Below, in pieces: positions 15,175-19,481 of a DNA stretch of 64,000 nucleotides (its first letter is position 1; the number at the start of each line of letters is the position of its first letter). The DNA lies in the NCBI RefSeq assembly GCF_050920415.1, contig NZ_CP169309.1; one strand, written 5' to 3'. Both the position numbers and the translations under genes were made by a program. This DNA is from Escherichia coli. GTDB taxonomy: Bacteria > Pseudomonadota > Gammaproteobacteria > Enterobacterales > Enterobacteriaceae. The notes under the pieces were generated by a model. That model had not been told where the DNA came from, ran no database searches, and worked only from the letters and a program-made list of their open reading frames with translations.

Positions 15175-15980
15175 TGGAACGCTACGAATCTCTGTTTGCC
15201 CAACTGAAGGAGCGCAAAGAAGGCGCATTCGTTCCTTTCGTCACCCTCGGTGATCCGGGCATTGAGCAGTCGCTGAAAATTATCGATACGTTAATTGAAG
15301 CCGGTGCTGACGCGCTGGAGTTAGGTATCCCCTTCTCCGACCCACTGGCAGATGGCCCGACGATTCAAAACGCCACACTGCGTGCCTTTGCGGCAGGTGT
15401 GACCCCGGCGCACTGCTTTGAGATGCTGGCACTCATTCGCCAGAAGTACCCGACCATTCCGATCGGCCTTTTGATGTATGCCAACCTGGTGTTTAACAAA
15501 GGCATTGATGAGTTTTATGCCGAGTGCGAGAAAGTCGGCGTCGATTCGGTGCTGGTTGCCGATGTGCCCGTGGAAGAGTCTGCGCCCTTCCGCCAGGCCG
15601 CGTTGCGCCATAACGTCGCACCTATCTTCATCTGCCCGCCGAATGCTGATGATGATTTACTGCGCCAGATTGCCTCTTACGGTCGTGGTTACACCTATTT
15701 ATTGTCGCGTGCGGGTGTGACCGGAGCTGAAAACCGTGCCGCGTTACCTCTCAATCATCTGGTTGCGAAGCTGAAAGAGTACAACGCTGCGCCTCCATTG
15801 CAAGGATTTGGTATTTCCGCCCCGGATCAGGTAAAAGCAGCGATTGATGCAGGAGCGGCGGGCGCGATTTCTGGTTCGGCAATTGTTAAAATCATCGAGC
15901 AACATATTAATGAGCCAGAGAAAATGCTGGCGGTACTGAAAGCTTTTGTACAACCGATGAAAGCAGCGACGCGCAGTTAA
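15174..15980 (+). CDS. trpA: Tryptophan synthase alpha chain
   Basis: 268 aa; TGATG overlap with trpB stop. Confidence 0.95.
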
Positions 15981-15985
15981 TCCCA

Positions 15986-16015
15986 CAGCCGCCAGTTCCG
16001 CTGGCGGCATTTTAA
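15986..16015 (+). terminator. trp operon terminator (trp t)
   Basis: gccgccag-ttccg-ctggcggc hairpin followed by attttaa. Confidence 0.7.
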
Positions 16016-16360
16016 CTATCTTTAATGAAGCAGGAAAAATCCTAAATTCATTTATTATTTATCTTTTTACCGTTTCGCTTACCCCTGACGTACGTTAACT
16101 TACGTCATTTTTCCGCCCAAAAGTAATATAATCAAACAAATTAATCCCGCAACAAAACACTACTAAAATCAATAATTTTCTCTAACCCACTTATTTCTTG
16201 GGTATTTATGAATATATCGAAACTCTTTTTCAAAATATATTTTTCACATTCCTTCTCACTTTGCTCAATTTGACTAATTCTCATTACCGACTAATTTTAA
16301 TGAGTGTCGACACACAACACTCATATTAATGAAACAATGCAACGCAACGGGAGAAATAAC

Positions 16361-16540
16361 ATGGCCGAACATCGTGGTGGTTCAGGAAATTTCGCCGAAG
16401 ATCGTGAGAAGGCATCCGACGCAGGCCGTAAAGGCGGTCAACACAGCGGCGGTAATTTTAAAAATGATCCGCAACGCGCATCCGAAGCGGGTAAAAAAGG
16501 CGGTCAGCACAGCGGTGGAAATAAATCAGGAAAATCCTGA
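16361..16540 (+). CDS. yciG: Stress-induced KGG-repeat protein YciG (59 aa)
   Basis: Start MAEHRGGSGN with GGGAG Shine-Dalgarno; two GGQHSGGN repeats; track ORF extends upstream to 16304. Confidence 0.75.
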   Translation: MAEHRGGSGNFAEDREKASDAGRKGGQHSGGNFKNDPQRASEAGKKGGQHSGGNKSGKS

Positions 16541-16632
16541 TCCGCCGTTAATTATTAATATCAGCTGACGTTGATAAAGATAATTGCCTCTGCGGGCCGT
16601 ATGGCTCGCAGTGATTTCACTGGAGTAAAAAT

Positions 16633-17133
16633 ATGAATATGAAGTCCATTGAAGATGTATTTATTCACCTGCTTTCAGACACCTACAGTGCAGAAAAACA
16701 ATTAACACGGGCACTGGCAAAACTCGCCAGAGCAACATCAAACGAAAAATTAAGTCAGGCTTTTCATGCGCACCTCGAGGAAACTCATGGACAGATTGAA
16801 CGTATTGATCAAGTTGTGGAATCTGAACCGAATCTGAAAATTAAGCGCATGAAATGTGTGGCAATGGAAGGTCTCATTGAAGAAGCTAATGAGGTCATCG
16901 AAAGCACCGAGAAAAACGAAGTGCGTGATGCCGCACTGATTGCCGCGGCACAGAAAGTCGAGCACTATGAGATCGCCAGTTACGGGACCTTAGCGACGCT
17001 GGCTGAACAATTAGGTTATCGTAAAGCAGCGAAGCTTCTGAAAGAAACCCTGGAAGAAGAAAAGGCCACCGACATCAAATTGACTGATCTGGCCCTTAAT
17101 AACGTAAATAAGAAAGCAGAAAATAAAGCCTGA
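16633..17133 (+). CDS. yciF: Ferritin-like DUF892 protein YciF
   Basis: 166 aa recognised as YciF. Confidence 0.85.
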   Translation: MNMKSIEDVFIHLLSDTYSAEKQLTRALAKLARATSNEKLSQAFHAHLEETHGQIERIDQVVESEPNLKIKRMKCVAMEGLIEEANEVIESTEKNEVRDAALIAAAQKVEHYEIASYGTLATLAEQLGYRKAAKLLKETLEEEKATDIKLTDLALNNVNKKAENKA

Positions 17134-17178
17134 AATATGAACTTTAACTTTTAGTCATTTTATAAAGAGGACATTTTC

Positions 17179-17685
17179 ATGAATCGTATTGAACATTATC
17201 ATGACTGGTTACGTGACGCCCACGCAATGGAAAAGCAAGCAGAATCTATGCTTGAATCCATGGCCAGCCGCATAGATAATTATCCTGAGCTACGCGCTCG
17301 TATTGAACAACATGTTAGTGAAACCAAAAACCAGATTGTACAACTGGAAACTATTCTTGATCGTAATGACATTTCACGCTCAGTCATTAAAGATTCTATG
17401 AGTAAAATGGCTGCACTTGGGCAGTCAATCGGTGGTATATTCCCTTCTGATGAAATAGTCAAAGGCTCTATTAGCGGATATGTCTTCGAGCAATTTGAAA
17501 TCGCCTGTTACACCTCACTATTAGCAGCAGCAAAAAATGCCGGTGATACAGCTTCAATTCCAACCATCGAAGCGATTTTAAATGAGGAAAAAGAAATGGC
17601 CGAGTGGCTGATTCAGCATATTCCGCAAACAACTGAGAAATTTTTAATACGCTCTGAAACTGATGGCGTAGAAGCGAAGAAATAA
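17179..17685 (+). CDS. yciE: Ferritin-like protein YciE
   Basis: 168 aa, paralogous architecture to YciF. Confidence 0.85.
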   Translation: MNRIEHYHDWLRDAHAMEKQAESMLESMASRIDNYPELRARIEQHVSETKNQIVQLETILDRNDISRSVIKDSMSKMAALGQSIGGIFPSDEIVKGSISGYVFEQFEIACYTSLLAAAKNAGDTASIPTIEAILNEEKEMAEWLIQHIPQTTEKFLIRSETDGVEAKK

Positions 17686-17744
17686 TACCCTTTATACCAT
17701 GTCCTTATTGACCCCGTATATTACGGGGTCGTTTTTATGCGGAA

Positions 17745-18383
17745 TTAAAAACGATATCCTGCTGAGAACATAAACACCCACGGATCGAGGCGTACGCTAT
17801 CGTGTTGCTGTGCACCGCCCAGTTTATAATTGGCGGTGGTGTCAATATCCATGTACCACACTGACATATTCACCAACCAGTCACGGTTAATCAGATAATC
17901 AACCCCCACCTGCCCGGCAGCTCCCCAGGAATCTTTCAGACTGAGATCGGAAAGCCCCGCCTCTTTGCCATGATCGTTAAATCCATTATCAAAGAAGGTG
18001 GTGTAGTTAATACCTGCCCCAACGTAAGGACGGAATTTGCTGCTGGCATCACCAAAATACCACTGCGCCATCAGTGTTGGCGGCAGATGATGAACGGTTG
18101 CAATATCACCGGTCGCCCGGGTACCGATTTTATGGCGGAACGGCGTAGCTGCCAGTAATTCCACACCAATATTGTCGGTCGCCATATAAGTAAACGTCAG
18201 GCCCAGTTGAGTGTTATTGGTTACGCTAAATCCACCCAGACTTCCTAATGTACCACCAGCACCTTCTGTTGGACGTACAGTTGCAGAACCTGCACGCATA
18301 AAAAATTCGCCTGCTTCATGCGCAAAGGCACTGCCAGAGAGAAGAGTTGTTACTGCCAAAGCCGCCACTGTTAACTTTTTCAT
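17745..18383 (-). CDS. ompW: Outer membrane protein W (212 aa from MKKLTVAALAV)
   Basis: Signal peptide MKKLTVAALAVTTLLSGSAFA; C-terminal aromatic residue typical of beta-barrel OMPs. Confidence 0.9.
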   Translation of the reverse strand: MKKLTVAALAVTTLLSGSAFAHEAGEFFMRAGSATVRPTEGAGGTLGSLGGFSVTNNTQLGLTFTYMATDNIGVELLAATPFRHKIGTRATGDIATVHHLPPTLMAQWYFGDASSKFRPYVGAGINYTTFFDNGFNDHGKEAGLSDLSLKDSWGAAGQVGVDYLINRDWLVNMSVWYMDIDTTANYKLGGAQQHDSVRLDPWVFMFSAGYRF

Positions 18384-18737
18384 ATCCGCTCCGTCGTTAT
18401 GGTTATAAAAACGTGACGAATATACCCACATTGGAGTAACAAATGATCCTACACAGATCACATTATATATGATAATTCACCCTTTATTGATCTGGATTAA
18501 TTTAGAAGTTGCACTGTGAATCCTGGTTAATGTGATTTAAATCAATTCCTATATATTTCACTACGCAAACATTAACTCGCTCGCCACTTGCTGCGGTTTG
18601 CCCATAGCTTAGACCCGCAATTACCTCCGCTTTACAAAGATATGCTTTTCCATACAAGACCTGATGCTGCCACCCGAGGCTTAACCAGGGTACAATTGCC
18701 CGCTAATTAACACCTGCATAAAACTCAAGGAGAGTGC

Positions 18738-19481
18738 ATGTCTATCACGGCGCAGTCCGTATACCGTGACACCGGAAATTTCTTCCGTAATCAATTTATG
18801 ACCATTCTGTTGGTATCGTTGCTATGTGCGTTTATCACAGTGGTGTTAGGGCATGTTTTCTCACCCAGTGATGCACAGCTTGCACAGCTCAATGACGGCG
18901 TGCCCGTTAGCGGCAGTAGTGGGTTGTTCGACCTGGTTCAGAATATGTCACCTGAACAGCAACAAATTTTGCTGCAGGCTTCAGCGGCGTCCACTTTTTC
19001 AGGATTAATCGGTAACGCCATTCTCGCCGGAGGCGTAATATTAATTATCCAACTGGTGTCTGCGGGTCAGAGAGTCAGTGCGCTTCGAGCTATTGGTGCC
19101 AGTGCGCCGATATTGCCAAAGTTATTTATTCTGATTTTTCTGACTACCCTTTTAGTACAGATTGGCATCATGCTGGTGGTCGTTCCGGGAATTATCATGG
19201 CCATTTTACTGGCTCTGGCACCGGTGATGTTGGTACAGGACAAAATGGGCATTTTTGCCTCGATGCGTAGCAGTATGCGGCTGACATGGGCGAATATGCG
19301 TCTGGTGGCACCCGCAGTACTGAGCTGGTTGCTGGCAAAAACACTATTGCTACTTTTTGCCTCTTCTTTTGCCGCATTAACCCCGGAAATTGGTGCCGTA
19401 CTGGCGAACACTTTGAGCAACATGATTTCAGCCGTACTGCTCATCTATCTGTTCCGCCTGTATATGTTGATTCGCCAATAA
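18738..19481 (+). CDS. yciC: UPF0259 inner membrane protein YciC
   Basis: 247 aa with multiple hydrophobic helices. Confidence 0.85.

Follow-up and report, generated by a model that had tools for sequence, protein, structure and literature searches.

The yciG-yciF-yciE general-stress operon between trpA and ompW of Escherichia coli, with a candidate sigma-S promoter and a conserved intercistronic hairpin

What are the three small genes that directly follow the tryptophan operon of Escherichia coli, and from where are they expressed? In the window analysed here, a 64,000-nt stretch of E. coli DNA, an initial annotation made from the bare sequence had placed at 16361-17685, immediately after the trp terminator, three co-oriented small genes: yciG, with two KGG-type repeats, and the ferritin-like paralogues yciF and yciE. 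It considered them an established pattern, an independently regulated general-stress operon behind an AT-rich, promoter-like region. Open reading frames lie at exactly these positions, all on the + strand: yciG at 16361-16540 (59 aa, two Pfam KGG matches), yciF at 16633-17133 (166 aa, Pfam DUF892, E 3e-52) and yciE at 17179-17685 (168 aa, Pfam DUF892, E 8e-51). A Shine-Dalgarno sequence stands ahead of each of the three. On the 5' side are trpB and trpA, whose coding end is at 15980, followed by a hairpin; on the 3' side ompW (17745-18383, - strand) converges on yciE. These genes make up the already known general-stress operon yciG-yciF-yciE, which lies between trpA and ompW on the E. coli chromosome.

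Alignment, which had been named as the way to confirm identity, agrees with this assignment. Over 1.9 kb there is 100% identity to E. coli MFDS1022581, on whose chromosome the RefSeq annotation reads trpA, yciG, yciF, yciE, ompW. Over 1.8 kb, trpA-yciG-yciF-yciE-ompW has 97% nucleotide identity to K-12 b1260-b1256 and is collinear with it, in equal order and spacing, yciG-yciF-yciE being b1259-b1257; the flanks, the promoter region and the terminators are also the same. This strain differs from K-12 in the second KGG repeat (GGQHSGGN here, GGQQSGGN in K-12), in two insertions, of 6 bp and 1 bp, within the yciG-yciF spacer, and in a few amino acids of YciF and YciE. The same genes carry RefSeq annotation in 4715 genomes, and no second yciGFE copy was found within the 64,000-nt window.

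YciG is a glycine-rich, hydrophilic protein of 59 aa, with the Shine-Dalgarno sequence GGGAG 8 nt 5' of its start. Pfam KGG (PF10685) matches two stretches of it at 66.9 bits (cut-off 20.4). Both copies of GGQHSGGN can be read directly, at aa 25-32 and 47-54 (nt 16433-16456 and 16499-16522), as the initial annotation had reported; since the second copy is GGQQSGGN in K-12, that report came from the strain's own sequence and not from recall of K-12. Two tests of membership in the KGG family, at least one 22-residue repeat above the Pfam gathering threshold and a size of about 55-62 aa with two repeats, both place YciG within it. Comparison of repeat number across strains, which had also been proposed, shows that the number is stable: exactly two KGG motifs are present in 110 of the 120 closest protein clusters. 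Those clusters are mostly of 59-62 aa, and the longer entries are mostly alternative start calls or frameshifted tails; exceptions in E. coli are one variant with a short internal duplication and another with a 4-aa deletion. The copies are too diverged to be visible outside the protein, and Tandem Repeats Finder detects no repeat in yciG DNA. No YciG relative was found in the PDB, and no NCBIfam model matches YciG, YciF or YciE. A 78-aa version of yciG starting at a GTG (16304) was rejected, as the extension is unconserved and both RefSeq and K-12 place the start at ATG 16361.

Several other small proteins belong to this repeat family. YciG, YmdF and STM14_1829 are described as small disordered proteins that are redundant in acid tolerance and motility, and the PA2146/YmdF homologue affects biofilm drug tolerance (PMC9262955). 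YmdF, STM14_1829 and PA2146 resemble YciG in repeat family, in size, in being induced under stress or in biofilms and in functional redundancy with it. Unlike yciG, however, they are encoded by stand-alone genes without DUF892 partners (e.g. L006), and the Walker-like GNKSGKS tail at the C terminus of YciG is missing from YmdF and PA2146 (PMC9262955).

Both larger proteins match DUF892 (PF05974) over its full length, with 177 bits for YciF and 173 bits for YciE (cut-off 23.7) and about 155 of the 159 profile positions covered in each. They share 24% identity (E 3e-5) and are distant paralogues, in line with the ferritin-like pair first described. Structures in the PDB are available for YciF from E. 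coli (2gs4, E 3e-97) and from Salmonella (4eru), and for YciE from E. coli (3ogh, E 4e-106). Ferroxidase activity and iron binding are known for Salmonella YciF only, in which mutagenesis identified Q54, E113 and E143 as required (bioRxiv 10.1101/2023.01.20.524870). A residue check covering YciF found all three at equal positions in the protein of this strain. By analogy with Salmonella YciF, both proteins may oxidise and hold iron, an activity that we infer in the case of YciE.

The known system to compare with this gene order is the Salmonella yciGFE-katN operon, which is RpoS-regulated. In S. arizonae (L019) it occupies the same trpA-ompW position and has the same promoter motif, palindrome GTGTCGACAC and intercistronic hairpin as the present locus; it differs by a fourth gene, katN, encoding a Mn-catalase, which this strain does not have. 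A search for katN, as the mark of a Salmonella-type operon, found it in L019, L008 and L011 and not at this locus. There is no room for it here, because only 59 bp separate the stop codons of yciE and ompW. This interval contains an intrinsic terminator at 17709-17736 (+ strand), a 10-bp stem followed by TTTTT, which was called by the terminator scan and lies 14 nt from the ompW stop codon.

Is the cluster a core part of the chromosome? At 41%, the GC content of the cluster is below that of trpBA (54%) and of the window as a whole (50%); combined with control by H-NS, this is consistent with an old cassette that is mobile and silenced. One reading, which we could argue either way, is that yciGFE, with or without katN, is not a core operon: it would be a horizontally moving, dispensable, H-NS-silenced cassette, found at trpA/ompW by chance of lineage. 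Many E. coli indeed harbour a second copy with katN in a prophage (L008-L010), which has been published as CP-933X (PMC5363993). This copy, yciG'-yciF'-yciE'-katN (Z1924-Z1921), shares gene order, promoter motif and hairpin with the locus studied here; it differs in lying among phage tail-fibre genes and in including katN, and its YciG is 88% identical to that of this strain. The cassette adjoins cytochrome bd genes in Klebsiella and Enterobacter, and cinA in L013. Apparent plasmid copies of yciGFE were discarded, as most of them sit in records several megabases long, which are chromosomes entered as plasmids.

Losses also speak for a dispensable cassette: of 5426 complete E. coli genomes, 686 have no yciGFE. 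In genomes of this kind ompW lies about 50 bp after trpA, with a different shared terminator hairpin between them, and divergence is seen both in the final codons of trpA and in the allele of ompW, which has 87% identity to the K-12 type; in many of them ompW is interrupted by a prophage. JJ1886, an O25b:H4 strain and an O127:H6 strain are among them, the first two of which we take to be ST131. Disruptions in single strains include IS1 within the matched span, and in L005 a deletion has removed yciG and the start of yciF. On the other side, the cluster is intact in 87% of E. coli genomes, and its presence at the trpA-ompW site in S. arizonae (L019), as yciG-yciF-yciE-katN, makes the insertion an old one. 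A mobile origin, moreover, complements the explanation that we prefer, an operon driven from a sigma-S promoter of its own, and does not exclude it.

Evidence for such a promoter comes from conservation. The sigma-70 consensus scan gave no ground for calling the upstream region promoter-like: none of its three hits falls upstream of yciG, and as the total is below the shuffle expectation of 4.8 the scan was not relied on. What upholds the description is a conserved sigma-S-type promoter predicted at 16270-16297 (+ strand), with a -35 element TTGACT (16270-16275), a 16-nt spacer and a -10 element TAATTT (16292-16297). The context of the latter, cTAATTTtaa (16291-16300), has the C at -13 and the TAA after the hexamer of a sigma-S-type extended -10, the form preferred by sigma-S. 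The pattern TTGACN-N15-CTAnnnT is found at identical spacing in 8 of 9 upstream regions of KGG genes from various genera and genomic sites, 59-78 nt 5' of the start codon. Trp-linked E. coli, prophage and Klebsiella upstream regions are otherwise unalignable, the exceptions being the invariant ATTTGAC and CTA..TT.AA. A comparison of seven E. coli haplotypes shows almost no variation in the core promoter and leader (16266-16360) and, just 5' of the -35 element, a variation hot spot in which 29 of the 60 nt at 16197-16256 are variable; elsewhere the number is 0-7 per 30 nt. The patch around the hot spot, at about 16188-16264, has about 65% identity to K-12.

Transcription from this promoter would start near 16304, about 57 nt ahead of the yciG ATG; the transcription start of yciG was reportedly mapped by Beraud et al. 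in 2010. A perfect 10-bp palindrome, GTGTCGACAC, can be read directly at 16304-16313, at about +1 of the predicted transcript, and could be a regulator site or a 5' stem. A riboswitch-like leader, suggested by overlapping inverted repeats, was dropped, the structure of the 5' UTR being unexceptional (z +1.5).

Published work bears out the view of the initial annotation that the operon is independently regulated and belongs to the general stress response. In stationary-phase EDL933, yciG, yciF and yciE are 205-, 405- and 38-fold RpoS-dependent, respectively, H-NS is listed as a regulator, and expression tracks RpoS, not tryptophan supply (PMC2907692). Repression of the operon by H-NS has been described separately (bioRxiv 10.1101/2025.05.13.653802), and according to PMC7705038, which cites Beraud et al. 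2010, the yciG promoter is bound by McbR/YncC.

The yciG-yciF spacer, which measures 92 nt in this strain and 85 nt in K-12, contains one further conserved feature: a stem-loop at 16590-16611 (+ strand), CTGCGGGCC-gtat-GGCTCGCAG, with one G.U pair among its 9 bp. In eight aligned spacers from seven lineages, no other conserved island is seen. The helix predicted by RNAalifold is this hairpin, with 9 of 9 pairs kept in all eight sequences: two pairs change from C-G to U-A, one alternates between G.U and A-U, and six never vary. Its G.U pairs are compatible with the mRNA strand only. Sliding the register reduces pairing from 100% to 26-39%, and the covariation score was reached by 23 of 500 shuffles, which is moderate support. 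A pattern scan of reference genomes located the hairpin in at least seven further yciG-yciF spacers, from Citrobacter, Enterobacter, Lelliottia and an Escherichia species, for a total of 15 enterobacterial loci with the eight aligned; the scan was conditioned on the stem, so that these are examples and not a census, and the matches listed were mostly chance ones in unrelated genomes, largely of high GC content. C.A mismatches at the two variable pairs occur in 0 of 30 cells, compared with 17-18% among the chance matches listed from unrelated genomes. Every yciG-yciF spacer examined has the hairpin, whether from Escherichia, Salmonella, Klebsiella, Enterobacter, Citrobacter, Lelliottia or the prophage copy.

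The stem alone has a predicted energy of -17.8 kcal/mol (z -3.6) and is part of the minimum-energy fold of the K-12, S. arizonae and E. asburiae spacers; in the full spacer of this strain, an alternative fold of similar energy displaces it from the minimum-energy structure. The tail that follows the stem in E. coli, UGAUUUCAC, is a weak U-tract, and the hairpin was not called by the terminator scan. A U-rich tract follows the stem in L011, L013, L019, L032, L074 and L079, for instance UAUUUUUUUCC in L079 and UUAUUUUUAACC in L032. Rfam returned no real match over 15500-18800, the sole match being a chance lncRNA (E 0.84). The most likely role of the hairpin would be that of a leaky terminator or a 3'-end protector, through which the amount of YciG relative to YciF and YciE is set. 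In Salmonella, the RNA chaperone CspE is reported to bind and stabilise yciF mRNA (PMC7858274, citing Ray et al. 2019); that CspE might act through this hairpin is speculation. We propose only tentatively, as a possibility we would not bet on, that the hairpin is an undescribed cis-acting RNA element, be it a leaky terminator, a 3'-end protector or a CspE site on yciF mRNA.

The same hairpin could instead divide the cluster into two transcription units: a monocistronic yciG mRNA ending at the hairpin, and yciF-yciE transcribed from their own McbR-controlled promoter in the spacer. The U-rich tracts that follow the hairpin in many genera, at the six loci just named, would suit such an end. A promoter could be provided by a sigma-70-like match at 16555-16584 (+ strand; TTAATA-18 nt-GATAAT), but its spacing results from the 6-bp insertion TGACGT, which is missing from K-12, O157 and most other haplotypes, and apart from the hairpin the spacer is not conserved across genera. 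Experimental reports point in both directions. A 'yciF promoter' probe over the yciG-yciF spacer was shifted by McbR in avian pathogenic E. coli (PMC7705038), and in exponential-phase EDL933 yciF was listed as RpoS-dependent, with yciG and yciE not listed (PMC2907692). In stationary phase, however, yciG, yciF and yciE respond jointly to RpoS (PMC2907692), and the literature treats yciGFE(katN) as a single operon. We consider two separate units unlikely and retain a single yciGFE transcript.

The region that separates this operon from trpA is AT-rich, as first described, with a GC content of 34% that falls to 28% over 16100-16299; it is longer than the 290 bp attributed to it, since the non-coding stretch 5' of yciG measures 380 bp (15981-16360), about 347 bp of which lie beyond trp t. 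At its beginning, 8 nt past the trpA stop codon, a 9-bp G+C-rich hairpin, GCCGCCAG-ttc-CTGGCGGC (15988-16008, + strand), is followed by AUUUU, the U-run extending to 16013. We take this element (15988-16013) to be trp t, the 3' end of the trp operon, which leaves yciG directly after it, as the initial annotation had it. Its stem is invariant in seven E. coli haplotypes, the one variable base being in the loop. A second terminator-like hairpin, TGACGTA-N8-TACGTCA followed by TTTTT, is present at 16086-16112 (+ strand), where substitutions make the stem stronger than in K-12. Both were called by the intrinsic terminator scan, which found six sites against 1.8 expected; a G+C-rich hairpin followed by a U-run is found at 15988-16008 and 17709-17731.

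The remainder of the upstream region bears on a second terminator of the trp operon, trp t', which presumably lies about 250 nt beyond trp t. The untranslated spacer at 16010-16300 (+ strand) is AT-rich, C-rich and G-poor (A95 C62 G21 T113), with a C:G ratio of about 3:1 and a GC skew of -0.44 to -0.57, a composition that looks like that expected of a Rho loading site. PMC9927376, citing Mott et al. 1985, describes trp t' as an intergenic Rho-dependent terminator, the second of the trp operon. The AT-rich region before yciG is also this second, Rho-dependent termination zone, and with its hairpins and its C-rich, G-poor composition the upstream DNA would also insulate yciG from trp transcription. 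Expression of yciGFE solely by read-through of trp transcripts, with no dedicated promoter, might be suggested by its co-orientation with trpA, directly 3' of it, and by the inefficiency of trp t as a terminator in vivo; this is hardly credible in view of the two hairpin terminators and the Rho-type zone that intervene, of expression that tracks RpoS, and of a promoter motif that also precedes yciG homologues away from trp, in the prophage, Klebsiella and Enterobacter.

We are therefore highly confident in the overall model of a sigma-S-driven, trp-insulated yciGFE operon, controlled by H-NS and McbR, tuned by a hairpin and encoding ferritin-like products. Its gene content, anatomy, conserved promoter and hairpin, and distribution come from the present analysis, the involvement of RpoS, H-NS and McbR and the ferroxidase activity from the literature; its inferred parts are where exactly transcription starts, what the hairpin does and what activity YciE has. 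According to this model, trp transcription would be stopped by trp t and then by the C-rich, G-poor Rho-dependent zone. RNA polymerase with sigma-S (RpoS) would start at TTGACT-16 nt-cTAATTT (16270-16297), while H-NS silencing and the GntR-family regulator McbR/YncC would act on the AT-rich DNA upstream. The transcript would run from yciG through the stem-loop at 16590-16611 to yciF and yciE and end at the hairpin shared with convergent ompW, with the stem-loop, as a leaky terminator or 3'-end protector, adjusting the yield of YciG relative to YciF plus YciE. YciG is a small disordered protein rich in glycine and lysine, and one among several stress proteins with KGG repeats that are redundant. 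YciF and YciE are ferritin-like di-iron four-helix bundles, whose iron oxidation and storage, by analogy with Salmonella YciF, may limit damage by reactive oxygen. The stresses concerned would be those of stationary phase, acid, osmotic shift and bile.

A textbook locus is thereby confirmed, and its first identification from raw sequence was correct. The additions made here, a conserved hairpin, a shared sigma-S promoter architecture and the lack of the cluster in genomes of the ST131 type, are modest and leave its classification unchanged. They may nonetheless be of use for the biology of the operon. The promoter and the intercistronic hairpin offer defined targets for mutations that would alter the balance between YciG and the DUF892 proteins, and the hairpin is a candidate site for the published effect of CspE on yciF mRNA. 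Finally, pandemic ST131 and its relatives, which are naturally without yciGFE at the trp locus, would serve as natural knock-outs for the role of yciGFE in stress survival.

Absence of the entire yciGFE cluster (the equivalent of window positions 15981-17744) was found in 686 of the 5426 complete E. coli genomes, exemplified by comparison loci L003 and L004. This set takes in JJ1886, an O25b:H4 strain and an O127:H6 strain, the first two of which we take to be ST131. In the genomes concerned, ompW lies about 50 bp after trpA, the terminator common to these two genes differs from that of cluster-bearing genomes, the 3' end of trpA has diverged, and the ompW allele shares just 87% identity with the K-12 type. 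A prophage splits ompW in many of them, as in strain AVS0171 (L003, 6132-12065), and the phage genes adjoining the split gene, for tail-fibre assembly and a SAM methyltransferase, resemble the surroundings of the yciGFE-katN copy borne by E. coli prophages (L008-L010). Between ompW and yciC, all strains examined carry a short pseudogene remnant annotated by RefSeq as a YkgJ-family cysteine-cluster protein (window 18621-18710, corresponding to L001 4222-4311).

A more limited natural deletion is seen in the cerebrospinal fluid isolate N24 (L005, 1926-1945), where the yciG leader is joined to approximately codon 10 of yciF: yciG is wholly lost, and a truncated yciF remains, for which the annotation uses a new start.

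Where the cluster is present, variation is concentrated directly 5' of the yciG -35 element (16270-16275). The 60 nt at 16197-16256 hold 29 variable sites among seven E. coli haplotypes, by far the most variable portion of the locus; the adjacent core promoter and leader are nearly unchanging in the same haplotypes. Farther upstream, between trp t and yciG, a terminator-like hairpin at 16086-16112 has a perfect stem in the window strain (TGACGTA/TACGTCA), whereas three substitutions break the K-12 stem. Where E. coli and Salmonella have the palindrome GTGTCGACAC (16304-16313), the yciG homologues of Klebsiella, Enterobacter and related genera (L011, L013, L015, L016 and L017) have in their 5' leaders another inverted repeat, conserved among them: GATACG...CGTATC, preceded by GAACGAC.

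The yciG-yciF spacer of the window strain differs from that of K-12 by two insertions: TGACGT at 16566-16571, found also in a few relatives (L020, L021), and an extra T at 16626, shared with L020. The 6-bp insertion gives rise both to a sigma-70-like match (TTAATA-18 nt-GATAAT) and to a different way for the RNA to pair, in competition with the conserved spacer hairpin (16590-16611). Over the 1.9-kb stretch 15900-17800, at least 99% identity was reached by just one of the 5426 complete genomes, the second-closest standing at 98.4%; the yciGFE-locus haplotype of the window strain is a rare one.
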